Positions 5,004 through 31,050 are shown, numbered from the stretch's first letter. The stretch: DNA of 32,000 nt from Candidatus Brocadia sp. (GCA_021650915.1 CP091279.1:1-32000); one strand, 5' to 3'. Notes: generated by a model not told the origin, from the letters alone. Numbers and translations: made by a program.

Positions 5004-5056
5004 AGGCCTTCGGCGACCTTCTCAAGGCAGAGCGACGAGCCTCGTCGCCCTACAAC
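5004..5056 (+). repeat. REP-like palindromic intergenic element, copy 1
   Basis: AGGCCTTCGGCGACCTTCTCAAGGCAGAGCGACGAGCCTCGTCGCCCTACAAC contains the palindrome GCGACGAG-C-CTCGTCGC (5032-5048). A second copy is present in inverted orientation at 7167-7221. Confidence 0.75.
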
Positions 5057-7097: not shown

Positions 7098-7166
7098 GTT
7101 CGTTCCTTTTTTAAATGGATGTATCAGAATTTCAAATGGGTAATTTCCCCTTTAGAAAGAGGGGAG

Positions 7167-7221
7167 TTGTAGGGCGACGAGTCTCGTCGCTCTACATTGA
7201 GCAGGTCGCCAAAGGCGGCCT
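7167..7221 (-). repeat. REP-like palindromic intergenic element, copy 2 (inverted relative to copy 1)
   Basis: The reverse complement reads AGGCCGCCTTTGGCGACCTGCTCAATGTAGAGCGACGAGACTCGTCGCCCTACAA, colinear with 5004-5056. It lies between the PHP gene stop and the TPR gene start. Confidence 0.75.
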
Positions 7222-8198: not shown

Positions 8199-8292
8199 AT
8201 AACGCAGCACAGTCGCAACCAAAAAAGTTCAACCACAAAGAGCACAAAGAAAACATCACAGAAAAAAGAAGTTTTTGTAGAGTAATACTATA
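8199..8292 (+). repeat. Modular miniature element, short copy (d)
   Basis: It has the shared 5' module ATAACGCAGCACAGTCGCAACC and the shared 3' module CACAGAAAAAAGAAGTTTTTGTAGAGTAATACTATA. The core is a short A-rich non-palindromic sequence (CCACAAAGAGCACAAAGAAAAC). Confidence 0.7.
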
Positions 8293-8386
8293 GAGCCTGC
8301 GCATAAACTAACCCGACTTTCGCAATTCGAGGGGTATGCAACCCGCTAAGCCAGTAAAATCAAGGGGTCATGTAAAAAGGTCGGCA

Positions 8387-10439
8387 CTACAGACCGACCT
8401 GTCCGGATGCGTAAACCTTGGGCGGCGGTTGTGCAGGAAGCGTTAATCCCAACTGCACCAAAAGGAGTAAAGCGCCCTTCTCCGGCTGGGTATAACGGCT
8501 CATGACAATATGACGGCCATCCGTGGTCGGTAAATGAACGTCTATCATTTGAATGCCCGACAGTTTTTCCAAAATCGCTTCAGACGTCAGCCCTCCGGCC
8601 CTCCCCCGCGCAAGATTGCGCAGTGTCGTGTGGAGACAAAAAGCCAAAAAGGAAACAAAGATATGGGCTTCAATTCTCCGTTCCAATTGATGCCATAGGG
8701 GCGGACGGAAAGAGACCCCTTCAAGTCCTTAAATGCCTGTTCTATCCGTGTCAACAGCAAATAATTTTCCCAGACGGTTTCTGGCGCGGTGGCCTGCATG
8801 TTGGAACGAAGCAAATAACGCCCCTCGCGCCGATACGCCTGCCTCAGGCGTTCCCGATCCAAACTGAACCGGAACGTATTCTCATTGACCGGTTCCTGCG
8901 GTTTGGGAATGGAGATCGTGACCAGTCTGTAGTCTCGTCCGGCTTCTTTCTTTAACGCGCCAATATGCATGAGCAGGTCATCGCGCGTGAGGGCTTTTCG
9001 ATTGCGAAGTTCGCGCAGGCCCATCCACAAACGTCTGAGTCTGCGCCTACGCATGGCACGCTCCTTAGACACCCGGTCATGGCTTTCCACGTAAACGTAA
9101 AACTCCGATTCCTGCCGAAGAACTTTCACGCGGACGCTCTCCCTCGCCCGCATCCAGGTTTGTTCGAGCAGCGGTTTTTCTACTCTCGTCAAATGCCCCT
9201 TCGGAGTACCAACCAAATAATCAATCCCTCGCTCACGCATCTTTTCCAACATCTCCTCCGTTGGAATACCTCTATCCATGAGCCAGGTGCGCCGGAATTT
9301 CCCATACTGCTTTTCAATCCGATCCAGAAATTCCTCCAGCGTTGCGGTGTCTCTGGTATTGCCCGGATACACTTCGTAGGCAACGGGAAATCCTTCCGGC
9401 GTTAACACCAATGCCACTACCACCTGCACGCAATCCGAACGTTTGTCCCGACTATATCCAAACCGTTTCTTACTCCCCGATCCAGTCGGAGGTGGGTCAC
9501 TTTTCAAAATACGTACTCGTCAAATCATACAGCAGCACATCGTACTTCGCCCCAAAGAGCTTGCCCCACTTCTCCTTTAAATAGGCAAACAGCTCGTCCC
9601 GATGCTCAAGCAACAAATCCAAACAACGATACGCCTTGTCCTTCTGCGCCAGGGAATAATCCTCTCCCAGCAGATCGCCTGTTGCGCTCCGCACGTACCA
9701 CTCACGGTGAAAACGAAATTCGCTTCCCGGATCGATCAACCGGTAACAGACAAGCGCCTTCAGTATATTCAACCAGCTTGTCCCCTTCCGGCTTGACGGC
9801 AGACGCATCCTCCAGAATGTGTCCAGTTCCAGCATATTCCATAGCGCGGCACAGCCGCAACCAAATTTCCTTTATGAAAGCGGGGAGATTGCTTCGGAAA
9901 AGGCCCTCGCAATGACACCGGCCATGCACTTTGATGGTACACTGCATGTTGTCATTGCGAGTGAAGCGAAGCAATCTTTCACTCATAAAAAACGGTACCT
10001 CCTGAAAGGGGTTTGTGAAAAAACTCACAGAAAAAAGAAGTTTTTATACAGTAATACTATACATACAATCCCAACCAGCTCGCTCCCCACTCCCGCGGAT
10101 GGCGCAGCTCTATTTTGTCCAATCTCATCCGGACTGTCTCACCATCCGGTATCGGCCTGGCTTCTCGGTCGTCCGGGGAAACAACGCCAGTTGTCTTGGC
10201 CTGGGTTCTTTACCCGACACCGTCTCTATCGTCCGAACCCACCCAGCCCGTTGATTGTCATTGAGTTCTCCCAAAGAGAGAACCTGCCGCTGCACCACCC
10301 TTCTTCCGCTGACCCGGCGGTTCTCTACCATGCTCCAATAACGGTGGGTTTTTCCATCTTTCGTTCGTGTCTTTTCCCGGAGAAGCATGCGAGCATTTTC
10401 GCACTTCCCCCTGCATGCGTCAAGAGGGTAGGTCGGCAC
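8387..10439 (-). pseudogene. IS1634-family transposase, copy A (multiple frameshifts plus nested insertion)
   Basis: The pieces are ORFs 10125..10439, 9497..9835, 8587..9507 and 8387..8686. Family hallmarks are KDGKTHRYWSMVE, YDLTSTYFE and GYSRDKRSDCVQVVVALV. It carries the same lesions as copy B plus a 1-bp deletion. Confidence 0.85.
9841..10065 (+). repeat. Modular miniature element with 89-nt hairpin core, nested in IS1634-like copy A
   Basis: Identical to the nested element in copy B (15732-15956). The hairpin spans 9887-9975. Confidence 0.75.
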
Positions 10440-10750
10440 TACAAGCCGTTTTGAAAATTCACCCCTTGAATATCACGGGTTTCCTGGCGACTCTTGCCCA
10501 AAAATAACCTTTTTTGGGCGCGAATTGCGAAAGTCGGGTTAGGCTGTATCGACGATACCCGAAGAAGCGGTATTATTGATTATGCCAGGATACTTGAGTC
10601 GTATGGGGGAGACAACATAGAAGGAAGGAGATTGTATTGGGAGACGGTCTGCAAGGATATATCGACAGGTATTGACATAAAAGAAGAGGTTGTCGGAGGA
10701 AGCATACTGGAAAGTGATACATTTATCACGTGGGCAAGAGACAAGTTTTT

Positions 10751-13739: not shown

Positions 13740-14200
13740 CTATACAATTGGGATTAGATGCACAAATGCCTCATCGATCGAGAGATTGACTTGCATTCCG
13801 TGGGTAAGCCCAAGCTCCTTGGCCACGATCCGGCTTATCCGTATTTTAAGGACTTCGTGAAGGGTAACTAACACCTTGGTTTCGAGGTCCCTTCCAATAG
13901 GATGAATAGATTCTACCACCCCAGTGAAAACGTTTCTGCCCGGTTGTATACGATGGGTACTAAGATGGATGGCTCCGGGACGAATGCATACCGTTACCTG
14001 ATCTCCTTCTGATAATTTCAAGAGGGTAAATATTTTTAACATAATGTCATTTATCTGAATGGTTACCTTATTCCCAAACGTATGGATGATCTTTCCTTTT
14101 AACACATTCTCCGTGTTCAGAAAGTGTGCAACAAATAGGGTTTTAGGCTTATAGAAAACCTCATCAGGACTCCCGAATTGCTCTATTGTGCCATTGTTTA
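13740..14200 (-). pseudogene. ABC transporter ATPase (ModC/CysA-like), C-terminal fragment with TOBE-like domain
   Basis: It reads NNGTIEQFGSPDEVFYKPKTLFVAHFL... then a TOBE-like tail. It continues exactly from the N-terminal fragment (...EMADRLGIL) once IS copy B and one TA are removed. Confidence 0.85.
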
Positions 14201-14276
14201 ACCCGACTTTCGCAATTCGAGGGGTATGCAACCCTCTGAGCCAGGAAAATCAAGGGGTCATGCAAAAAGGTCGGCA

Positions 14277-16330
14277 CTACAGGCCGACCTGTCCGGATGC
14301 GTAAACCTTGGGCGGCGGTTGTTCAGGAAGCGTTAATCCCAATTGTGCCAAAAGGAGTAAAACGTCCTTCTCCGGCTGGGTATAACGACTCATGACAATA
14401 TGACGGCCATCCGTGGTCGGTAAATGAACGTCTATCATTTGAATGCCCGACAGTTTTTCCAAAATCGCTTCAGACGTCAGCCCTCCGGCCCTCCCCCGCG
14501 CAAGATTGCGCAGTGTCGTGTGGAGACAAAAAGCCAAAAAGGAAACAAAGATATGGGCTTCAATTCTCCGTTCCAATTGATGCCATAGGGGGCGGACGGA
14601 AAGAGACCCCTTCAAGTCCTTAAATGCCTGTTCTATCCGCGTCAACAGCAAATAATTTTCCCAGACGGTTTCTGGCGCGGCGGCCTGCATGTTGGAACGA
14701 AGCAAATAACGCCCCTCGCGCCGATACGCCTGCCTCAGGCGTTCCCGATCCAAACTGAACCGGAACGTATTCTCATTGACCGGTTCCTGCGGTTTGGGAA
14801 TGGAGATCGTGACCAGTCTGTAGTCTCGTCCGGCTTCTTTCTTTAACGCGCCAATATGCATGAGCAGGTCATCGCGCGTGAGGGCTTTTCGATTGCGAAG
14901 TTCGCGCAGGCCCATCCACAAACGTCTGAGTCTGCGCCTACGCATGGCACGCTCCTTAGACACCCGGTCATGGCTTTCCACGTAAACGTAAAACTCCGAT
15001 TCCTGCCGAAGAACTTTCACGCGGACGCTCTCCCTCGCCCGCATCCAGGTTTGTTCGAGCAGCGGTTTTTCTACTCTCGTCAAATGCCCCTTCGGAGTAC
15101 CAACCAAATAATCAATCCCTCGCTCACGCATCTTTTCCAACATCTCCTCCGTTGGAATACCTCTATCCATGAGCCAGGTGCGCCGGAATTTCCCATACTG
15201 CTTTTCAATCCGATCCAGAAATTCCTCCAGCGTTGCGGTGTCTCTGGTATTGCCCGGATACACTTCGTAGGCAACGGGAAATCCTTCCGGCGTTAACACC
15301 AATGCCACTACCACCTGCACGCAATCCGAACGTTTGTCCCGACTATATCCAAACCGTTTCTTACTCCCCGATCCAGTCGGAGGTGGGTCACTTTTCAAAA
15401 TACGTACTCGTCAAATCATACAGCAGCACATCGTACTTCGCCCCAAAGAGCTTGCCCCACTTCTCCTTTAAATAGGCAAACAGCTCGTCCCGATGCTCAA
15501 GCAACAAATCCAAACAACGATACGCCTTGTCCTTCTGCGCCAGGGAATAATCCTCTCCCAGCAGATCGCCTGTTGCGCTCCGCACGTACCACTCACGGTG
15601 AAAACGAAATTCGCTTCCCGGATCGATCAACCGGTAACAGACAAGCGCCTTCAGTATATTCAACCAGCTTGTCCCCTTCCGGCTTGACGGCAGACGCATC
15701 CTCCAGAATGTGTCCAGTTCCAGCATATTCCATAGCGCGGCACAGCCGCAACCAAATTTCCTTTATGAAAGCGGGGAGATTGCTTCGGAAAAGGCCCTCG
15801 CAATGACACCGGCCATGCACTTTGATGGTACACTGCATGTTGTCATTGCGAGTGAAGCGAAGCAATCTTTCACTCATAAAAAACGGTACCTCCTGAAAGG
15901 GGTTTGTGAAAAAACTCACAGAAAAAAGAAGTTTTTATACAGTAATACTATACATACAATCCCAACCAGCTCGCTCCCCACTCCCGCGGATGGCGCAGCT
16001 CTATTTTGTCCAATCTCATCCGGACTGTCTCACCATCCGGTATCGGCCTGGCTTCTCGGTCGTCCGGGGAAACAACGCCAGTTGTCTTGGCCTGGGTTCT
16101 TTACCCGACACCGTCTCTATCGTCCGAACCCACCCAGCCCGTTGATTGTCATTGAGTTCTCCCAAAGAGAGAACCTGCCGCTGCACCACCCTTCTTCCGC
16201 TGACCCGGCGGTTCTCTACCATGCTCCAATAACGGTGGGTTTTTCCATCTTTCGTTCGTGTCTTTTCCCGGAGAAGCATGCGAGCATTTTCGCACTTCCC
16301 CCTGCATGCGTCAAGAGGGTAGGTCGGCAC
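14277..16330 (-). pseudogene. IS1634-family transposase, copy B (two frameshifts plus nested insertion)
   Basis: The N-terminal ORF 16016..16330 stops while another frame continues PDGETVRMRLDKIELRHPREWGASWLGL. The nested element lies at 15732-15956. The middle ORF is 15388..15726. A frameshift in the A4 run (15392-15395) follows YDLTSTYFE. The C-terminal ORF is 14277..15398. Confidence 0.88.
15732..15956 (+). repeat. Modular miniature element with 89-nt hairpin core, nested in IS1634-like copy B
   Basis: The 5' module is ATAGCGCGGCACAGCCGCAACC. The hairpin at 15778-15866 pairs GATTGCTTCG...CTCGCAATGACA with TGTCATTGCGAG...CGAAGCAATC. The 3' module is CACAGAAAAAAGAAGTTTTTATACAGTAATACTATA. 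Boundaries are +/-8 bp. Confidence 0.75.
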
Positions 16331-16432
16331 TACAAGCCGTTTTGAAAATTCACCCCTTGAATATCACGGGTTTCCTGGCGACTCTTGCCCAAAAATAAAC
16401 TTTTTTTGGCGCGAATTGCGAAAGTCGGGTTA

Positions 16433-17051
16433 AAATGCCAAGCCTGTCTGCCATCTCCAGTGTTTCCTGCTGATCGTGCGTAATGTAGACCATCGTGATG
16501 TGTAACTTCTTTTGAAGTTCTTTAAGTTCTGCCTTGATCTTTTGCCGCGTTTCTATATCCAGGGCACTTACTGGTTCATCCAATAATAGGAGTGATGGTT
16601 CAATAATCAATGCCCTTGCCAATGCCACCCTTTGCATCTGCCCTCCACTCAGTTGAGATGGAAAATGATGCTCGAGTCCTTGCAGGCTAAAATCATCAAT
16701 AAATTGTCTGACCCTTGTTTGTATGATATTTTTCGGGACCTTGCGCAGTCGCAACCCAAAGGCAATATTATCAAAGACCGTGTGATTGGGGAAGAGTGCG
16801 TAATTTTGAGGCACATATCCAATATTCCGTTCCCCGGGACTGAGGTTTGTAACGTCTACTCCGTCTATGATTACCCGACCGCTGTCAAATGGCTGCAAGC
16901 CAATGATGCCAAGAAGTAAGGTTGTCTTCCCACCCCCGCTGCTACCAAGGATGATAAATAACTCATTTGAAAAAATTTCAAGTGATAAATTGTCCAAAAC
17001 AGTATGCGGACCAAAGCTTTTGGACACATTGAATAATTGCAATTTATGCAT
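16433..17051 (-). pseudogene. ABC transporter ATPase (ModC/CysA-like), N-terminal fragment
   Basis: Walker A GSSGGGKTT, signature LSGGQMQRVALARAL, Walker B LLLLDEP, H-loop ITHD. The ORF then runs into the IS end (TRLSQFAPKK...). The ATG overlaps the permease stop (ATGCATAA). Confidence 0.9.
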
Positions 17052-17631
17052 GGATTTTCCGTGTCGTTTCCTTAAAGAAGAATTTTATAATGGTCAATAA
17101 GACAAACGTCAGAAATTCAAGGATAATGGCAAGGGCGATGGCCTTATCCATTTCTCCTTTTTGCGTGGCAAAATAGATCAACACCGACATGGTCCCTGTA
17201 GAAGAGGTCATACCTCCCGCAAGGATCAGGGTTGCTCCGATCTCGCCCAAACTCTTCGAAAGGGCCATGATAAGCCCCTTCAGTACACCCCAAATGGAAA
17301 GCGGGAAAGTCAGTTTGTAAAATATCTGGAGGGGGCTTGCGCCCAAGGTATAGGCCACGTTCTCAATGTTTTTATCTACACGATCAAATGCCTCCCGAAC
17401 GAAGCTGATCATGAAGGGAATGCATACAAAGAGTTTGGCCAAGACTACGGCTGCAAAGGTATAAGGCACGTAGATATGAAAATATCCGAAAAATTTACCC
17501 AGAATGCCCGTCCTCGATAATAAGAGCAGAAGAATGAGTGCGTCTACACCAGGCGGGAAAGACAGGGGCAAATCAACCACCACCGTCTCCAGGATACGTT
17601 TTCCCCAAAAGGTCTTTCGAGATAGTATATA
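17044..17631 (-). pseudogene. ABC transporter permease (ModB/CysTW-type), C-terminal fragment
   Basis: It reads LSRKTFWGKRILETVVVDLPLSFPPGV... with an EAA-loop-like segment REAFDRVDKNIENVAYTLGASPLQIFYKLTFPL. It is cut off from its N-terminus by the IS at 17632-19481. Confidence 0.85.
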
Positions 17632-19481
17632 GTGTCTGAACGAAAACGCACTTTTTGTAAAAGTGCGAGGTCGATTTTCTATTTACCAATAGATAATTTT
17701 AAGATTTGAGATTAGGGTTTTTGGCAAAAATACTGTTCTTTTACATATTTCCCTTGTTTTCCCCTTTATTTTAGCCTTGTCTGGGCGTACCTGCCTCCCG
17801 GCAGACTGTTTTTCTTCGTGTTTTTTGCTTGCTTAGGCGGCTTTTCGCAACTTTTCGCACTGCTTCCGTGCCTTCTCCTGCAGCACGTTTCCCAGCTTGT
17901 GCAAATTCGCAGCTAACACGCCCATTGCACAATATCTTTTAAAGGCATGCAGCCCTTTGTCCGGACACCTATCCAAGCCGTGATGCTCCAAACGATTGAT
18001 ATCCGATTCTACCGCCGAGTGCTTGTGCCTTAGCTTCTTAAATGTCTTACCCGATTCCTCTTCCTGTTCCGCCTTATTCTTCTTGCCCTTCTTGGGAAGG
18101 ATTACCTCTGGTATATACAAACTCAGCAACTCTTTATTCTCTTTCTTGTAAAAACCTTTATCAAAACTTATACTCTTTATTGTGCCTTCTCCGTAACGGC
18201 TCAACAACCTATCTGCCAATGGAATTACCAACGATACATCCGCCTGTTTTTCTCCTACCACATGGTCCACGATGAAACCCCACTGATCGCTTGCTACCAG
18301 AATATTATGTCCCAACTCTACCCTTTTGTTTGACTTGCCTTTGTACAGCCACTCCGTATGCGGCTCAAACAACGAATGAACCTTTTCTGCCGCCGGTATT
18401 ACCTCATCCCGGATCACCCTTCTCTCCACCAGGTCTATCTGTTTATTCAACATCCCGTGAAAATACTCCAGTGTCCCTATTTTCCCTGCATGCTTGTCTA
18501 CCTGGTTCGTCGTTAGCACCTTTTCGTAGATGGCTAACAGACTCGCTCCTATCTTTTCACTCAAACCCCTCGATAATTCCAAGTAACTCCTCACATGCTC
18601 TTCCTTGTTTTTCCCCCCCGCTGCTTGACGCCTTTGCGCTTATCCTCATCAGCTTTTTTAACTCTCTCCTCCAATATTTGCTCTTGCGCCATCCTTTCCC
18701 CGCCAGGATGCCTTCCTCTATTGCATCCTCTATCATGTCCAGACTCTTGCGTCCCGCATCCCACAATAAATTCATATCGGTCGGAAAGTGTACATTCGTC
18801 TCTAACACATACGTATCCACCTTAATACACAGTCCTTCGTCCTTTTTTTTAACCAACTGATGCCCCGATGATATCACCACTTCATTTATCTGCCTGAGGG
18901 TCTCCTCATCCAACAATCTTATATTGTCCTTGATGCTCTGCATCGAAAAAACCTTCGCCTCTCCAAATGCCGTCTCAACCCCCATTATCTGCCTGATAAG
19001 TTTGTGATGGTTGGCAAAATCCTCCAACCTGTCATAATCGGCATCTAACCCTAATCTTACCACCGACAACACCAAAATATGCCATAAATCCATCCCATAT
19101 CTTCCCGTCTTTTTCTTCCCCTTCGTTACCTTCGCCTCTAATATCCGGAATACCTCCTCGTTCAACTCCGGTGTAACATAGATATGTTGCAACGCCCTCA
19201 GTATCGGTGGTAGCTCATCTCGACTCTTTATTGGCAGTTTTACCCCTGAAATGGGTATGATGCCAAGCTTCAATTGCTGCTCAAATCTCTTTCTCATCTT
19301 CTATCGAATGTCCTTTGGCTAGTGGGTTAATGAACCGAATATTTGGACTCTTTATACCCAGAATCCCTTCATTTTCGCCATATTTTACCCTTTTACCCGA
19401 AAAAATTCAATGACTTTCATGAACATTTTTCACCAGCTTCTCCTTACTTTACAGGGCTCTGGGGGGTTTCCGTTCAAACAC
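17632..19481 (-). mobile_element. ISNCY/ISDol1-like IS, frameshifted copy (1850 bp), inserted in the permease gene
   Basis: Termini are GTGTCTGAACGAAAAC / GTGTTTGAACGGAAAC (imperfect inverted repeats). A 6-bp target duplication TATATA lies at 17626-17631 and 19482-19487. Excision restores ...SVPTAYI-LSRKTFWGK in frame. Confidence 0.93.
17833..19297 (-). pseudogene. ISNCY/ISDol1-like transposase split by +1 bp in a homopolymer
   Basis: ORFs 18557..19297 and 17833..18594 together equal the intact 487-aa protein at 29369..30832. The only disruptive difference seen is C7 at 18613-18619 versus G6 (30056-30061) in the intact copy. Confidence 0.9.
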
Positions 19482-19487
19482 TATATA

Positions 19488-19724
19488 GGCAGTGGGTACA
19501 CTGAAAACAAACACTATCAGGGAGGCAATAAAAGAAGAGCCGAATGTTACGACAATGGAGACAAGTATCACGCGGCTACTCAGTTGTTGAAGGAAAGAAG
19601 ATGGGGTTGTCGTAAAGAACAGCGACCCGATAATTAAAAACATAAAGGCAATAAGGATGAAGGAAAAGAAGTAATTGGTGCCTTCAAATACCTTATTCGC
19701 CACTTTTAGATAAAGCTTCCCCAT
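19488..19724 (-). pseudogene. ABC transporter permease (ModB/CysTW-type), N-terminal fragment
   Basis: MGKLYLKVANKVFEGTNYFFSFILIAFMFLIIGSLFF...SVPTAYI, with the ATG at 19724. The 174-aa ORF in the track is a chimera of miniature element, this fragment and the IS end. Confidence 0.75.
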
Positions 19725-19727
19725 ATC

Positions 19728-19955
19728 ATAACGCAGTACAGTCGCAACCAATTCCCCATTTTGAAAGCGGGAGATTGCTTCGGACAAGACCCTCGCAATG
19801 ACACTGGCTATGTCTTTGATGACATCCAGTACGTTGTCATTGCGAGCGAAGCGAAACAATCCTCCTCTTATAAATAAACGGTACCTTCTGACAAGGGATA
19901 AATAGGGTTGCAAAAAAACTTGCAAAAGAAGAAAGATTTTATGCGGTAATACTAT
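19728..19955 (+). repeat. Modular miniature element with hairpin core, copy (c), 4 nt from the permease ATG
   Basis: 5' module ATAACGCAGTACAGTCGCAACC, hairpin at 19773-19861 (the same arms as the nested copies), 3' module AAGAAGAAAGATTTTATGCGGTAATACTAT. Confidence 0.75.
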
Positions 19956-20075
19956 AACGCAGCACAGTTGCAACTAAACTAAATTAACCACCCCTTCAGC
20001 CCCTCCTTGCAAGGAGGGGCTGAAGGGCGGCAAAATATCTTTCTGGAAAAAGAAATTTCTACAAGGTAATACGAT
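19956..20075 (+). repeat. Modular miniature element, copy (e), head-to-tail with copy (c); core is a 36-bp perfect palindrome
   Basis: It starts with the 5' module AACGCAGCACAGTTGCAAC. The core is CCCTTCAGCCCCTCCTTG/CAAGGAGGGGCTGAAGGG (19992-20027). The 3' module is GGAAAAAGAAATTTCTACAAGGTAATACGAT. Confidence 0.7.
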
Positions 20076-20104
20076 GGTGATGTTTTGCGATTTCAAAAAC
20101 AGAT

Positions 20105-21154
20105 TTACAGTTTCGTTATCGTGTCGCTGTCGTAGTTTGCCACCCAAATGTTAGCGCCATCAAAGACAATTCCCCGAGGGTTGATGCCTACATCATAGGT
20201 GCCGATCACGGCGCCGTCACTTGCTCTCATTTTTGTTACGTCGTTACTGCCCGCATTCGTCACCCAGATATTGGCGCCATCAAAGGCTATTCCGTATGGG
20301 TACATTCCCACAGCGTAGGTGCCGAGTGTGGTCCCATCATTTGCTCTCAGCTTTGTTACCTTACCGCTGCCGTAATTTGTTATCCAGATATTGGCGCCGT
20401 CAAAGGCCACCCATTTGGGGATCCAACCCACAGCGTAGGTGCTGAGTAAAGTCCCATCGCTTGCCCGTAGCTTCGTTACGCTGTTGCTATTAGAATTTAC
20501 CACCCAAACGTTGGCGCCGTCGAAGATCACTCCTCGCGGATTTAGACCCACGGCATAGGTGCCGAGTATCGTTCCATCGCTTGCCCGTAATTTTGTCACA
20601 TCGTTACTGCCGGAATTTGTCACCCAGATATTTTCCCCATCAAAGGCCACTCCATAGGGATAGAAACCCACGACATAGGTGTCGAGCACCGCTCCATCGC
20701 TTGCTCTCATTTTTGTTATGCTGTCGCCGCCGGAATTTGCCACCCAGATGTTAGCGCCATCAAAAGCTATTCCCCTTGGGATGAAGCCCACGGCATAGTT
20801 GCCAAGTACGGTCCCGTCACTTCCCCTTAGCTTTGTTATACTGATGCTACCAGAATTCGTCACCCAGATATTGGTTCCGTCAAAGGTCACTCCATAGGGT
20901 TGAAAACCCACGGAAAAGGTAGAACTGCTGTGGGTTGTCAGTTCATACCATTGTTTGAGCTTTCTAAAGCGCGTTTCCTCTGTGTCGACATCTTCATTTG
21001 AGACAGTGAGAGAAGGGCGTTGCACATTCGGAAGGATGAAGCGGGAAAGAGTCTCTCCTGGAGTTGTGCGTTTTTCATATGATTCCGCCCGGGGCGCCAT
21101 GCTGGTAAATAAGACTAATGCAATAAAAAAGAAGATGTTCCTGGAGACCTTCAT
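20105..21154 (-). CDS. Secreted repeat protein, 7 x ~40-aa repeats (beta-propeller-like, NHL/YVTN-type impression)
   Basis: Signal peptide MKVSRNIFFFIALVLFTSMAPRAES, with AAGGAG before the ATG. There are seven units of the form G(I/V)AFDGANIWV(T/A)NxGSxxVTKLRASDGxxLGTYxVGxxP. The repeat is visible at DNA level as ~120-bp tandem units (20108-20896). Confidence 0.8.
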   Translation of the reverse strand: MKVSRNIFFFIALVLFTSMAPRAESYEKRTTPGETLSRFILPNVQRPSLTVSNEDVDTEETRFRKLKQWYELTTHSSSTFSVGFQPYGVTFDGTNIWVTNSGSISITKLRGSDGTVLGNYAVGFIPRGIAFDGANIWVANSGGDSITKMRASDGAVLDTYVVGFYPYGVAFDGENIWVTNSGSNDVTKLRASDGTILGTYAVGLNPRGVIFDGANVWVVNSNSNSVTKLRASDGTLLSTYAVGWIPKWVAFDGANIWITNYGSGKVTKLRANDGTTLGTYAVGMYPYGIAFDGANIWVTNAGSNDVTKMRASDGAVIGTYDVGINPRGIVFDGANIWVANYDSDTITKL

Positions 21155-24463: not shown

Positions 24464-26527
24464 TTAATCCGCATTGGTTGCATACTTAAGGCCGAAATTA
24501 GTATCGTCATAATAGCTGATGTGCGCCTTGCCCGCTGTGTCCACTGCAATGGAGGTATACCCGCCTACGTTCCCGCTACTATCAAGAGTTTTTATTTTCC
24601 ATGAACCGGAAATATTGGTTGCATACTTGAGATCGTCATTCGTATCATCATAATAGCTTATATGAACCTTGTTTGATGTGTCTACTGCAATGGAAGTATG
24701 TCCGCCTACAGTTCCACTGCCGTCCACAGTCCTGGTTACCCACGAACCGGAAGTATTCGTGGCATACTTGAGGTCACCACGAGTATAATCATAATAGCTG
24801 ATGTGCGCCTTGCCTGATGTGTCTAGTGTTAAGGAGGAAAACTGTCCGACATCACCATCGCTGTCAATAGTCTTGGTTGTCCATAAACCAGCGGCACCCG
24901 TGGCATATTTGAGGACATCTTTTGTGTTATCATAATAACTTATATGTACCCTGCCTGATCTGTCCACTGCGATCGAGGTATATTCCCCTACATTTCCATC
25001 GCTGTCAATGGTCTTGGTTACCCACGAACCTGAGGCGTTGGTGGCATACTTGAGGTCTTCATTGGTGCAATCATAATAGCTTATGTGCGTTTTACCAGAT
25101 GCATCCACTTTTATGGAGGAAAACTCTCCTGCATTTCCTCCGCTATCAACAATCTCGGTTGCCCATGAACCAGAGGCATTGGTGGCGTATCTGAGATCAC
25201 CGTTCGTACTATCATAGTAGCTGATGTGCACCTTGTTTGATATGTCCACTGCTATGGAAGTAAATTCGCCTACATTTCCTTGACTGTACAAGCTTGTGAC
25301 TACCCATGAACCGGAGGCATTGGTAGCGTACTTGAGGTCGCTTTTTGTGCTGTCATAATAGCTGATGTGTACCTTGTTTAAGGTATCTGTTGCTATGGAG
25401 GTATATGCCACAACATTACCGCCACTGTCGATAGTTTCAGCTCTCCATAAGCCAGGAATATTAGTGGCATATTTGATACTACCATTGACGCTATCATAAT
25501 AACTTATATGCACGTTACGAGATGTATCCACTGCTATGGAGGTATAACTACCAACATTTACATCCTTAGCCACAGTATCTATTCTCCATGTGCCCGTGGC
25601 ATTGGTGGCGTGCCTGATGCTACCGGTAGTAATATCATAATAGCTGATGTGTACCTTACCCGCTGTGTCAGCTGCTATGGAGGTATATCCACCTACATTC
25701 CCGCTGTTATCTACAATAACCAATGTCCATGTGCCAGAGGCATTGGTGGCGTATTTGAGGTTTTTCCTGGTAGTATCATAATAGCTGATGTGTGCCTTGC
25801 CAGATGCGTCCACTGCTATGGAGGAGTATTCACCTACCCATTCGCCTTTGTCCACAGTAGTGGCTAACCATGATCCGGAGGCATTGGTGGCATATTTGAG
25901 GTTTTTCCGGGTAAGATCATAATAACTGATATGCACCTTGCCCGCTGTGTCCACTGCTACGGAGGTATATGTCCCCACATCCTCGTTATTATCTGCCGTG
26001 GCTGTTACCCATGTGCCAGAGCTATTCGTGGCATATTTGAGATCGCCGTTGAAATCGTCATAATAACTGATATGTACTTTATTTGAAGAATCAAGCGCTA
26101 TGGAGGTATATCCGCCTGTTTTCCCGCTGTTATCCACAATAACGGTTATCCATAAGCCTGATGCATTGGTGGCATATTTGAGGTTTTTATTCGTAAGATC
26201 GTAATAGCTGATGTGTACCTTGCCCGATTTATCCAGCGCTATTGAGGCATATCCGCCTACTCCAGAGGAAGGATCCACCGTCACGATATGCCATCTGCTG
26301 CCATCATGACGTGCATAGTAAAGGTGGTCGCCTCCAAAGACAATATGAGGATGGCCATGAGTGTCGATGGCCATTGCCCTCGAATAACCCTGTTGGGAAT
26401 ATTTTTCTTTTATAACGGTTTCTATCGGCCACGTTACCGCAAATGATGTATTTGTCATAAAAAGAAAGTTGGTAAAAATGAGAAATACGGGCAATAACGA
26501 TCTTTTGTTCATAATTATTCCCATCAT
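24464..26527 (-). CDS. Secreted repeat protein, 14 x ~44-aa repeats (HISYYD...LKYATNxSGxW), probable tandem beta-propellers
   Basis: AGGAGG lies 6 nt before the ATG, and the N-terminus is hydrophobic. There are 13 near-perfect units G(G/E)YTSIAVDxxGKVHISYYDxTxxDLKYATNASGSWxxxxVDxxGNV plus one degenerate first unit. The repeat is visible as ~132-bp tandem DNA units (24467-26380). Confidence 0.8.
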   Translation of the reverse strand: MMGIIMNKRSLLPVFLIFTNFLFMTNTSFAVTWPIETVIKEKYSQQGYSRAMAIDTHGHPHIVFGGDHLYYARHDGSRWHIVTVDPSSGVGGYASIALDKSGKVHISYYDLTNKNLKYATNASGLWITVIVDNSGKTGGYTSIALDSSNKVHISYYDDFNGDLKYATNSSGTWVTATADNNEDVGTYTSVAVDTAGKVHISYYDLTRKNLKYATNASGSWLATTVDKGEWVGEYSSIAVDASGKAHISYYDTTRKNLKYATNASGTWTLVIVDNSGNVGGYTSIAADTAGKVHISYYDITTGSIRHATNATGTWRIDTVAKDVNVGSYTSIAVDTSRNVHISYYDSVNGSIKYATNIPGLWRAETIDSGGNVVAYTSIATDTLNKVHISYYDSTKSDLKYATNASGSWVVTSLYSQGNVGEFTSIAVDISNKVHISYYDSTNGDLRYATNASGSWATEIVDSGGNAGEFSSIKVDASGKTHISYYDCTNEDLKYATNASGSWVTKTIDSDGNVGEYTSIAVDRSGRVHISYYDNTKDVLKYATGAAGLWTTKTIDSDGDVGQFSSLTLDTSGKAHISYYDYTRGDLKYATNTSGSWVTRTVDGSGTVGGHTSIAVDTSNKVHISYYDDTNDDLKYATNISGSWKIKTLDSSGNVGGYTSIAVDTAGKAHISYYDDTNFGLKYATNAD

Positions 26528-28995: not shown

Positions 28996-29184
28996 ATCAC
29001 GTGCAGGTTGTATAAAAACCAGTATAAGAGCCTGCTAACCGGCTGTATTCCTCAGAAAAATGAATCATCATTTATTGGCGGTAGTTTTCAGGCAGGGACG
29101 GGCTAATTATGAAAGAACAAACGGTTATTTGGTGATGAACGAAGCAGCTTCCATTTGTTCGCAATGCTACGTCAAATATAAGTA

Positions 29185-31033
29185 GTGTTTGAACGGAAAC
29201 CCCCCAGAGCCCTGTAAAGTAAGGAGAAGCTGGTGAAAAATGTTCATGAAAGTCATTGAATTTTTTCGGGTAAAAGGGTAAAATATGGCGAAAATGAAGG
29301 GATTCTGGGTATAAAGAGTCCAAATATTCGGTTCATTAACCCACTAGCCAAAGGACATTCGATAGAAGATGAGAAAGAGATTTGAGCAGCAATTGAAGCT
29401 TGGCATCATACCCATTTCAGGGGTAAAACTGCCAATAAAGAGTCGAGATGAGCTACCACCGATACTGAGGGCGTTGCAACATATCTATGTTACACCGGAG
29501 TTGAACGAGGAGGTATTCCGGATATTAGAGGCGAAGGTAACGAAGGGGAAGAAAAAGACGGGAAGATATGGGATGGATTTATGGCATATTTTGGTGTTGT
29601 CGGTGGTAAGATTAGGGTTAGATGCCGATTATGACAGGTTGGAGGATTTTGCCAACCATCACAAACTTATCAGGCAGATAATGGGGGTTGAGACGGCATT
29701 TGGAGAGGCGAAGGTTTTTTCGATGCAGAGCATCAAGGACAATATAAGATTGTTGGATGAGGAGACCCTCAGGCAGATAAATGAAGTGGTGATATCATCG
29801 GGGCATCAGTTGGTTAAAAAAAAGGACGAAGGACTGTGTATTAAGGTGGATACGTATGTGTTAGAGACGAATGTACACTTTCCGACCGATATGAATTTAT
29901 TGTGGGATGCGGGACGCAAGAGTCTGGACATGATAGAGGATGCAATAGAGGAAGGCATCCTGGCGGGGAAAGGATGGCGCAAGAGCAAATATTGGAGGAG
30001 AGAGTTAAAAAAGCTGATGAGGATAAGCGCAAAGGCGTCAAGCAGCGGGGGGAAAAACAAGGAAGAGCATGTGAGGAGTTACTTGGAATTATCGAGGGGT
30101 TTGAGTGAAAAGATAGGAGCGAGTCTGTTAGCCATCTACGAAAAGGTGCTAACGACGAACCAGGTAGACAAGCATGCAGGGAAAATAGGGACACTGGAGT
30201 ATTTTCACGGGATGTTGAATAAACAGATAGACCTGGTGGAGAGAAGGGTGATCCGGGATGAGGTAATACCGGCGGCAGAAAAGGTTCATTCGTTGTTTGA
30301 GCCGCATACGGAGTGGCTGTACAAAGGCAAGTCAAACAAAAGGGTAGAGTTGGGACATAATATTCTGGTAGCAAGCGATCAGTGGGGTTTCATCGTGGAC
30401 CATGTGGTAGGAGAAAAACAGGCGGATGTATCGTTGGTAATTCCATTGGCAGATAGGTTGTTGAGCCGTTACGGAGAAGGCACAATAAAGAGTATAAGTT
30501 TTGATAAAGGTTTTTACAAGAAAGAGAATAAAGAGTTGCTGAGTTTGTATATACCAGAGGTAATCCTTCCCAAGAAGGGCAAGAAGAATAAGGCGGAACA
30601 GGAAGAGGAATCGGGTAAGACATTTAAGAAGCTAAGGCACAAGCACTCGGCGGTAGAATCGGATATCAATCGTTTGGAGCATCACGGCTTGGATAGGTGT
30701 CCGGACAAAGGGCTGCATGCCTTTAAAAGATATTGTGCAATGGGCGTGTTAGCTGCGAATTTGCACAAGCTGGGAAACGTGCTGCAGGAGAAGGCACGGA
30801 AGCAGTGCGAAAAGTTGCGAAAAGCCGCCTAAGCAAGCAAAAAACACGAAGAAAAACAGTCTGCCGGGAGGCAGGTACGCCCAGACAAGGCTAAAATAAA
30901 GGGGAAAACAAGGGAAATATGTAAAAGAACAGTATTTTTGCCAAAAACCCTAATCTCAAATCTTAAAATTATCTATTGGTAAATAGAAAATCGACCTCGC
31001 ACTTTTACAAAAAGTGCGTTTTCGTTCAGACAC
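29185..31033 (+). mobile_element. ISNCY/ISDol1-like IS, intact copy (1849 bp)
   Basis: Termini are GTGTTTGAACGGAAAC ... GTTTTCGTTCAGACAC. A 6-bp target duplication TAAGTA lies at 29179-29184 and 31034-31039. The size and 6-bp duplication fit what I recall for the ISDol1 group. Confidence 0.92.
29369..30832 (+). CDS. ISNCY-family (ISDol1-like) DDE transposase, intact
   Basis: 487 aa. MRKRFEQQLKLGIIPISGVKLPIKSRDELPPILRALQHIY... and VDTYVLETNVHFPTDMNLLWD are typical of proteins annotated as ISNCY family transposase (from memory). Confidence 0.85.
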   Translation: MRKRFEQQLKLGIIPISGVKLPIKSRDELPPILRALQHIYVTPELNEEVFRILEAKVTKGKKKTGRYGMDLWHILVLSVVRLGLDADYDRLEDFANHHKLIRQIMGVETAFGEAKVFSMQSIKDNIRLLDEETLRQINEVVISSGHQLVKKKDEGLCIKVDTYVLETNVHFPTDMNLLWDAGRKSLDMIEDAIEEGILAGKGWRKSKYWRRELKKLMRISAKASSSGGKNKEEHVRSYLELSRGLSEKIGASLLAIYEKVLTTNQVDKHAGKIGTLEYFHGMLNKQIDLVERRVIRDEVIPAAEKVHSLFEPHTEWLYKGKSNKRVELGHNILVASDQWGFIVDHVVGEKQADVSLVIPLADRLLSRYGEGTIKSISFDKGFYKKENKELLSLYIPEVILPKKGKKNKAEQEEESGKTFKKLRHKHSAVESDINRLEHHGLDRCPDKGLHAFKRYCAMGVLAANLHKLGNVLQEKARKQCEKLRKAA

Positions 31034-31050
31034 TAAGTACTAATAGTCAT

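Follow-up and report, generated by a model that had tools for sequence, protein, structure and literature searches.

We analysed a stretch of 32,000 nt from Candidatus Brocadia sp. (GCA_021650915.1 CP091279.1:1-32000; the whole of it is called the window from here on), which holds five short non-coding repeats with constant ends and different cores, two of them side by side in the region beginning at position 19728. We consider these five repeats as gene-less, non-autonomous members of an unclassified family of transposable elements that has an autonomous partner of 1.7 kb encoding a nickase-like transposase of 515 amino acids (aa), and we give this statement, taken as a whole, a probability of roughly 0.55. 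Its parts differ in strength. The repeats are very probably non-autonomous mobile elements having their termini in common with the 1.7-kb unit, and the 515-aa protein is probably the transposase; its identity as a Rep_trans-like nickase, acting in a rolling-circle-like manner, is a tentative proposal.

All five copies are on the + strand and are numbered here by position; the limits quoted include the ATA of each junction. The 5′ module query AACGCAGCACAGTCGCAAC gave five matches at ≤3 mismatches, versus none in 100 shuffles, and relaxed scans for both ends did not find a sixth copy in the window. When the five regions were aligned, two conserved blocks were obtained with unrelated cores between them. 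Precisely, the 5′ end of the copies covers about 22 nt, with the consensus (C)ATA-RCGCRGC-NNN-GYYGCAAC, and the 3′ end about 45 nt, in the form ...AAAAAAGAAGTTTTT-N6-GTAATACTATA. The copies are flanked on both sides by ATA (TA at minimum). The original prediction had described one family of small, dispersed, non-coding elements with constant ends and swappable cores, and both the existence of five copies and the description of their cores were confirmed, whereas some limits had to be revised: copy 2 ends at 10061 instead of 10065, copy 3 at 15952 and copy 4 at 19956, and copy 5 covers 19954-20076.

Copy 1 (8199-8292, 94 nt) begins with ATA-ACGCAGCACAGTCGCAACC and ends with AAAAAAGAAGTTTTTGTAGAGTAATACT-ATA. 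Its core is A-rich, of the ACCACAAAG..CACAAAG type that was also found at four other loci (L010, L020, L066 and L017), and the copy is without a stable fold (z = +0.3). Copies 2, 3 and 4 have a hairpin core of 89-90 nt. In copy 2 (9841-10061, 221 nt with both ATAs) this core is a REPIN-like hairpin of 90 nt at 9887-9976, and the hairpin of the 5′ end, GCGGC-ACA-GCCGC, has a folding energy of -5.8 kcal/mol. Copy 3 (15732-15952) is 100% identical to copy 2, at a constant offset of 5891 nt. Copy 4 (19728-19956, 229 nt) has its 89-nt hairpin core at 19773-19861 and, folded whole as single-stranded DNA, gave z = -4.1. Copy 5 (19954-20076, 123 nt) has a perfect palindrome of 36 bp (19992-20027) as core, and its 3′ end, GTAATACGATG, is degenerate; the whole copy gave z = -5.5. 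Two public short-read contigs carrying the neighbouring NHL-repeat gene (L001:6700-6832 and L003:5220-5353) end in the middle of this palindrome. Copies 4 and 5 are joined head-to-tail through one common ATA (19954-19956), and a tandem junction of the same kind, GTAATACT-ATA-RCGC, was also present in L017, L120, L095, L142 and L137.

The miniature-element family is mobile, as can be read from copy 2, which sits within the transposase gene of an IS1634-family insertion sequence. On the minus strand, an N-terminal fragment of the transposase is upstream of the copy and the rest of the transposase downstream. The net insertion is 218 nt (9844-10061), and in-silico excision of exactly this length on the + strand, either there or at 15735-15952 for copy 3, gave the reading ...GASWLGLYVWNMLELDTFWRMRLPSSRKGTSW..., whose junction peptide, GASWLGLYVWNMLELDTFW, is identical to that of P0001, the intact 593-aa IS1634 transposase of a Candidatus Brocadia genome. 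Over its full length the reconstructed transposase is 97% identical to P0001, and in a homologue with 89% identity (L071) the DNA is uninterrupted at the insertion site. The filled site reads, on the + strand, TTCC-ATA-[GCGCGG...GTAATACT]-ATA-CATAC, and the empty site has one ATA. The same picture was obtained for a second filled site (L079) compared with uninterrupted paralogous repeats (L143, L021, L175 and L111). Copies 2 and 3 represent one insertion inside two copies of the same 2.2-kb IS1634-family element, hence the five copies in the window count as four independent insertions.

The termini of the repeats were found again around a gene. Locus L120 consists of two tandem units of 1700 bp, each having both termini around an open reading frame (ORF) of 515 aa: ATA-GCGCGGCTACGCCGCAACC is followed by a leader of about 115 nt, by the ORF and by ...AAAAAAGAAGTTTTTACAGAGTAATACT-ATA. 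This layout indicates that the 5′ to 3′ orientation originally given to the repeats is that of the 515-aa gene. In + orientation, the plan of the autonomous element is a short GC hairpin (GCGGC-loop-GCCGC), set in from the boundary by a few bases, then AAC, the leader, the gene and a 3′ end of the form ...AAAAAAGAAGTTTTT-N6-GTAATACT. Full-length relatives with both termini were obtained from L095, L142 and L137, which differ from each other in the left and in the right flank, from Brocadia sapporoensis (L186) and from a Binatia genome locus (L032), which encodes a protein with 36% identity and has an identical 21-mer, ATARCGCRGYACAGYYGCAAC, 140 nt upstream. The absence of an encoded transposase, part of the original prediction, therefore holds for the copies and not for the family, in which the 1.7-kb partner exists (L120, L095, L142, L137 and L186). 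The copies are not fragments of this longer element, since they have in common with it the termini only and not the interior.

More distant relatives repeat the plan. A clostridial-type element was found at ten loci (L176-L185), with many different flanks, a protein 50% identical to that of L120 and sharp boundaries, N/CACAGCGCGGCC-TAC-GGCC... and ...GAGAATTATATA/N (slashes mark boundaries). Three copies of a third type (L194-L196), C/ATA/GCGCAGC-ATA-GCTGCAAAC, have sharp boundaries and different flanks as well. The stem of the 5′ hairpin shows compensatory variants, with GCAGC facing GCTGC in L194-L196 (an A-T pair) and GCGGCC facing GGCCGC in L176-L184. The gene of about 515 aa is the only one common to the full-length elements of Planctomycetota, Binatia and Firmicutes-type contigs. 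Contigs with a gene of this family are typically 1.7-2.5 kb long, which suggests that gene and termini assemble together as a repeat unit. At least five loci of the protein family are in the Brocadia genome that holds the 97% identical IS1634 homologue.

Other cargo was also found between the same ends. At L172:1170-1685 a 515-nt element has an antisense PF05635 gene inside long inverted arms, and the miniature element travelling with the transposon in L095, L142 and L137 has arms of this L172 type without the gene. This miniature looks like a deletion derivative of the gene-bearing type, so that cores can also arise by loss of cargo. Genes of PF05635 (23S rRNA intervening-sequence protein, an Avd-like four-helix bundle) are within elements with the same termini both in L172 and in L176-L184, where a 121-aa gene is divergent from a 509-aa gene. 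This cargo may bear on the origin of the 23S rRNA intervening sequences.

The spread of the family was evaluated by scanning one genome per species for the exact pattern of the 21-mer, and 64 genome loci were obtained. About 20 of the elements, in the anammox genomes of Brocadia, Scalindua and Wunengus, are complete, with the full architecture, the 3′ module and the head-to-tail junction GTAATACT-ATA-RCGC. A scan of metagenomes with the 3′ module gave more than 100 loci, about half of them with a recognisable 5′ module at a distance of 86-346 nt; the resulting miniature elements (86-346 nt) have modal lengths near 117, 170 and 220 nt, and most of the remaining loci have diverged 5′ modules such as GCGGC-GTA-GCCGC. 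Thus the terminal modules occur elsewhere with many other cores, an outcome opposite to the one that would have refuted the original prediction, and decay of a single ancestor is not sufficient to explain them. At least four core types are recurrent across several species: the ACCACAAAG type, the CCCCTCCTTGCAAGGAGGGG palindrome, a short C5-loop-G5 hairpin and the REPIN-like hairpin. The last one, in its 89-nt form, consists of two inverted TGTCATTGCGAG..CGAAGCAATC units and also occurs alone, without termini, at L056:1171-1240; at least this core is hence an independent unit.

Occurrences of the 21-mer alone came from Gemmataceae (many of them at the ends of contigs), Hydrogenedens, Deltaproteobacteria, Binatia, Anaerolineae and Acidobacteriota. 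One assembly from Gemmataceae has it within 10-50 nt of the ends of more than 20 contigs, which implies a very high copy number there. In the non-anammox loci (L008-L070; e.g. L030, L037 and L048) the 21-mer is beside short repeats of the ACCACAGAG.CAC.GAG type, sometimes on both sides, and beside other hairpins. Around the 64 loci no conserved neighbouring gene was found, only ordinary housekeeping genes, and no Y1-like ORF was recurrent near them. The orientation of the elements relative to the neighbouring genes is mixed across loci. The 21-mer was not found in viral contigs. Searching the literature for the 21-mer as a string, and for miniature inverted-repeat transposable elements (MITEs) of anammox bacteria by keyword, returned nothing relevant, and no named family of MITEs or of repetitive extragenic palindromic (REP) sequences fits the repeats.

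The protein encoded by the 1.7-kb unit belongs to a very large family that is distributed across many phyla: a word-indexed search gave 4444 matches, and at 50% identity there are 11,090 clusters (1593 of these at E ≤ 1e-30). No Pfam or NCBIfam model matched it at E ≤ 1, PHROGs and PDB sequences gave no match, and PADLOC gave one marginal partial match only. All of the 120 homologues listed are unnamed or 'hypothetical protein', and none of them has a Pfam domain. The AlphaFold2 model, built on 36 sequences (predicted local distance difference test, pLDDT, of 87), has the succession strand-helix-four strands-helix (S1-H1-S2..S5-H2) twice, followed by helices and a winged helix. The predicted fold is that of a double repeat like the one of the TATA-binding protein (TBP) plus a winged helix. 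In Foldseek searches the model gave weak matches to archaeal and yeast TBP and to winged-helix proteins in the PDB, and, among viral models, matches to the phycodnavirus TBP A0A2N9QVX7, to an Inoviridae protein, to an African swine fever virus B263R homologue and to poxvirus VETF-L.

This topology is reminiscent of the Rep_trans nickases. Rep_trans initiators and the archaeal Rep-Arvir family have a TBP-like catalytic fold, which in Rep-Arvir is followed by a winged helix; the fusion to a winged helix-turn-helix is a feature of Rep-Arvir that was not seen in bacterial Rep_trans, and A0A2N9QVX7 is also among the fold matches of the Rep-Arvir nickase (PMC13107129, 2026). The motifs were taken from the two published definitions: the catalytic set of RepDE is Y191, D46, D142 and E214 (PMC13107129), and the motifs are N′ (D), I (RxD), II (T/SxY/ExG), III (YxK..E) and IV (W/LxRxE), the tyrosine being located on a beta-strand (PMC5714925). 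We rebuilt the sequence of pT181 RepC, in which Y191 is within IRIYNKK, and compared it with the 515-aa family; an AlphaFold model of RepC reached a pLDDT of 40 and was of no use as topology control. The invariant F-D20-R-M..G of the family corresponds to SFD46AM..G of RepC (motif N′), the invariant Y321-D-K to Y191-N-K (motif III) and the invariant L-R328-x-E330 to W-R-V-E214 (motif IV); each of these three motifs is invariant in 35-36 of the 36 sequences. On the first strand of the second repeat, the invariant E247 and D251 lie where RepC has the region near D142. Neither an HUH motif nor an H-U-H among the invariant residues was found in the 515-aa protein, and neither an RNase H-like fold nor a match to a DDE family.

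Further signs bearing on the mechanism come from the DNA. The two ends of the elements are asymmetric, no copy has terminal inverted repeats, and the ends have ATA(G) alone in common. The stem of the 5′ hairpin is kept while its loop varies freely, and of 74 copies, 62 have C-[A/C]TA before the 5′ end; the relaxed expressions used for the ends are unspecific on shuffled sequence, so these stem statistics should be read as indicative only. The 3′ end closes in ...ACTATA. Arrays of transposon with transposon, of transposon with miniature and of miniature with miniature have one shared ATA per junction, and the composite of transposon and miniature is present at three different places (L095, L142 and L137), moved as one unit three times.

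As the simplest single scheme, we propose a mechanism in which the enzyme, apparently a tyrosine nickase of TBP fold and Rep_trans type with a C-terminal winged helix, would recognise the terminal hairpin and would nick after ...ATA at the left boundary; one strand would then be displaced, copied up to the next 3′ terminus and inserted 3′ of a (C)ATA target, which may also be the ATA ending a resident copy. The miniatures keep both termini, which is all that the enzyme should need, so they should be movable in trans. Landing on the ATA of a resident copy would produce head-to-tail arrays, while read-through past the first 3′ end would mobilise the DNA up to the next 3′ terminus. Such read-through capture, together with the nested insertion of independent hairpin repeats, could generate the interchangeable cores, and a rolling-circle-like scheme would account for the asymmetric ends.

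Several points weigh against the reading of the 515-aa protein as a Rep_trans-like nickase that moves these elements. None of the fold matches is strong, E being at least 0.001 and TM, relative to the query length, at most 0.23, and the RepD structures are absent among the 50 PDB matches listed. Motifs I (RxD) and II (T/SxY/ExG) are without a literal match in the family, hhalign against a RepC profile gave a probability of 0.07 (the profile is narrow, its sequences being ≥81% identical), and Pfam Rep_trans (PF02486) and DUF7845 (PF25227) did not match even at E ≤ 1. The relation to Rep_trans thus rests on the fold topology and on three of the five motifs; we infer a relationship, and membership of the superfamily is not established. 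No copy of the 515-aa gene is within the window, and the readable Brocadia copy (L187, from another assembly) is decayed, being truncated and having a stop codon. Finally, at 5 of 7 clostridial-type loci an identical base occupies the variable position beside TATA on the left and on the right. Classical rolling-circle transposons make no target duplication, and this base hints at a short true one, so that a transposase making staggered cuts remains a serious rival.

According to this rival, which we judge unlikely on the whole, the family is the same and the 515-aa protein would be a transposase of an unrecognised kind, either cut-and-paste or copy-out/paste-in, making a staggered 2-4-bp cut at (T)ATA, with a true target duplication. 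In such an enzyme D20, E247/D251 and E330 would be a metal-binding triad for hydrolysis or transesterification and Tyr321 would not be the nucleophile. Besides the clostridial-type base, this rival expects the observed count of ATA, which is one for the empty site and two for the filled one, and the L120 junction looks like a tandem dimer with abutted ends separated by 2-3 bp; dimers of this kind are typical intermediates of the IS3, IS30 and IS21 families. The lack of terminal inverted repeats speaks against it, as does the flank, which is CTA on the 5′ side and ATA on the 3′ side in four independent full-length copies, so that at most TA is shared. The protein has neither the fold nor the family match of a DDE enzyme, and its invariant tyrosine, in YDK context, would lie on a beta-strand in Rep_trans fashion according to the model.

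We consider it improbable that the 515-aa protein is only cargo or a regulator, i.e. a TBP-like or winged-helix DNA-binding protein, and that the termini are moved by an enzyme encoded elsewhere, e.g. a Y1 HUH transposase such as a REP-associated tyrosine transposase (RAYT). Asymmetric ends bearing hairpins, inserted beside a short fixed sequence, do resemble IS200/IS605 and REP/RAYT systems, the PF05635 genes demonstrate that other cargo is carried too, and no catalytic domain is recognised in the protein by sequence. Against this, its gene is the sole one common to the full-length elements, it forms a repeat unit with the termini in the 1.7-2.5-kb contigs, the 64 genome loci have neither a conserved neighbour nor a Y1 gene, and the 5′ and 3′ hairpins are dissimilar, unlike the ends of IS200/IS605. 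Instead of the partner of Y1/RAYT type suggested by the original prediction, the protein of about 515 aa was found, which has no HUH motif and no Pfam match.

It is very improbable that the repeats are intergenic elements maintained by the host, of the type of REP sequences and bacterial interspersed mosaic elements (BIMEs) or of BOX, acting as promoter, terminator or mRNA stabiliser and spread by recombination, with an incidental link to the 1.7-kb unit: the mosaic architecture is like that of BIME and BOX, many copies are directly upstream of gene starts and the tandem pair occupies an entire intergenic spacer, whereas one copy breaks a coding sequence with base-exact boundaries, the orientation relative to neighbouring genes is mixed, the copies contain no promoter or terminator consensus, and identical termini bound a protein-coding unit in many genomic contexts. 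Minus-strand cassettes of a promoter and a 5′ untranslated region ending in ATG were considered separately and rejected, because there is no promoter consensus, the ATG is mostly out of frame or before a stop codon, and the orientation is mixed.

By analogy with known systems, the elements would work most like elements of IS91/Helitron type, and the enzyme most resembles the Rep_trans/Rep-Arvir nickases. As in IS91, ISCR and Helitron elements, the ends are asymmetric and without inverted repeats, hairpins are near the ends, tandem multimers occur, insertion takes place beside a short fixed target that stays at one boundary, terminator read-through would mobilise adjacent DNA and non-autonomous derivatives share the termini only; the DNA traits of that group (asymmetric ori/ter ends, fixed target, tandem copies and read-through capture) were all found here. 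A rolling-circle transposase of the HUH Y2 type was not: unlike those of the group, the 515-aa protein lacks an HUH motif as well as any Y2_Tnp, Rep or helicase domain (Pfam/NCBIfam, E ≤ 1), its predicted fold is TBP-like and not RRM-like, the target is (C)ATA and not GTTC/CTTG or A^T, and a short target duplication is possible.

The Rep_trans group used for comparison consisted of PF02486, RepC/RepD of pT181, RstA of CTXphi, the MOBT relaxases of Tn916/ICEBs1 and the archaeal Rep-Arvir (DUF7845). The likeness would consist in the TBP-like double repeat and the winged helix after it that the model predicts (the latter as in Rep-Arvir), in the invariant tyrosine, in Y-x-K context and on a beta-strand of the model, in the acidic residues of equivalent strands (FD..M..G and L/W-R-x-E) and in an action expected at a site containing a hairpin. 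The differences are that profile comparison detected no similarity to the Rep_trans group, motifs I and II have no literal counterpart, the 515-aa proteins are about 200 residues longer than RepC, and their genes are in chromosomal, multi-copy units like insertion sequences and not in plasmids, phages or conjugative elements.

With IS200/IS605, palindrome-associated transposable elements (PATEs) and REP/REPIN-RAYT systems the repeats have in common that they are small hairpin elements without inverted repeats, inserted beside a sequence of 3-5 nt, whose miniatures are mobilised in trans, and the 89-nt core of two inverted TGTCATTGCGAG..CGAAGCAATC units is like a REPIN. They differ from REP/RAYT in that the terminal modules have no GTAG head, no Y1-like ORF is near the 64 loci and the partner, a different protein, has no match to Y1_Tnp. 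They differ from IS200/IS605 in that the left hairpin, GCGGC-N3-GCCGC, is unrelated to the A/T-rich 3′ end, no Y1 gene is associated and no TnpA or TnpB was found (Pfam, NCBIfam). Correia/NEMIS elements, MITEs of IS630/Tc1-mariner type and pneumococcal BOX are alike in their length of 90-230 nt, in the TA at both junctions, in being often beside genes and in their modular make-up of constant outer and variable inner modules. Unlike the MITEs that duplicate TA, the present elements have neither terminal inverted repeats nor an IS630-type transposase, and their outer modules correspond to the termini of a 1.7-kb element whose protein is unrelated. They are MITEs only in the broad sense: no copy has the inverted repeats of a parent DDE insertion sequence required by the strict definition, while their lengths (86-346 nt), the termini equal to those of 1.7-kb units (L120, L095 and L186), and an empty site that is exact for copy 2 and paralogous for L079 agree with the broad one. 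Among curated insertion sequence families (ISfinder and NCBIfam transposase models) no place was found for them, no NCBIfam or Pfam model matching at E ≤ 1.

The known chemical classes of transposases are DDE, HUH, serine, tyrosine and Cas1-like. To our knowledge, enzymes of Rep_trans type have so far been known only from plasmid and phage replication and as conjugative relaxases. In the literature we found no description of a transposon with a TBP-fold or Rep_trans enzyme, by a search that was not exhaustive. It is possible, if rather doubtful, that the elements constitute a new superfamily of prokaryotic transposons, with more than 11,000 sequence clusters across many bacterial phyla, whose transposase would be a Rep_trans-like tyrosine nickase of TBP fold; the PF05635 genes that its members ferry in long inverted arms could then explain how the 23S rRNA intervening sequences originated. 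If a nickase of Rep_trans type does move this DNA, a class would be added to the transposases and the initiators of rolling-circle plasmids would be linked to chromosomal transposons, as HUH enzymes already do. A very large protein family is so far unannotated and in no protein-family or insertion sequence database. In practice, the elements break short-read assemblies, supply spurious small ORFs in many environmental genomes, and inactivate genes and other insertion sequences in the anammox bacteria used for wastewater treatment. The 5′ hairpin together with GTAATACTATA can be used as a search key for annotation.

Within the window, the tandem pair (19728-20076) occupies the whole spacer from the NHL-repeat gene (20105-21154, minus strand) to a small truncated LysO-like ORF (minus strand, start at 19724), the 5′ end of copy 4 being 4 nt from the start of this ORF, in agreement with the original prediction. 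The genes near copies 4 and 5 are all on the minus strand. The further claim that a promoter must lie inside the copies was not sustained, since no copy has a sigma-70-like site and the orientation across loci is not fixed; the two genes flanking the pair are co-directional, so read-through transcription is possible. An Rfam scan of the whole window (E ≤ 1) gave only tRNA-Arg and a chance microRNA match on the palindrome, and no omega-RNA. A sigma-54 promoter, an integron attC site, a CRISPR repeat and fragments of tRNA, signal recognition particle RNA or RNase P were compared by eye with consensus sequences and did not fit.

The IS1634-family insertion sequence, with inverted repeats of 22 nt, is present twice, both times on the minus strand: at 8308-10542, carrying copy 2 and having one end 15 nt from copy 1, and at 14197-16434, carrying copy 3 and splitting a modC-like ABC ATPase gene into a TOBE domain part (13740-14231) and an ABC ATPase part (16350-17051). 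Its transposase gene is disrupted by two frameshifts in addition to the miniature insertion. Both copies have the same two frameshifts and the same 218-nt insertion, which implies that an already defective element was either duplicated or mobilised in trans. Another insertion sequence, with a DDE_Tnp_1 transposase, has three 100% identical copies (17623-19483; 29183-31042, inverted; 2062-2718, partial), one of which truncates the LysO-like ORF beside the tandem miniature elements. At 97-1497 there is a transposase of ISAs1 type (DDE_Tnp_1_assoc + DDE_Tnp_1), whose N-terminal region matches the DruA domain of Druantia (E = 4e-25).

On either side of the rluD-like and TPR genes lie the two arms of a 51-nt inverted pair (5006-5056 and 7166-7216, 90% complementary). 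The pair contains a palindrome with a GTAG head, GTAGGGCGACGAG.CTCGTCGCCCTAC, and looks like a separate REP-like repeat family. In one Brocadia element (L058) this palindrome takes the place that the 3′ module normally has; it lies there about 100 nt upstream of the 21-mer. In-frame tandem repeats within coding sequence were observed in the BNR_4-like protein (24464-26527; 12 x 141 nt) and in the NHL-repeat protein (20105-21154; 6 x 120 nt).

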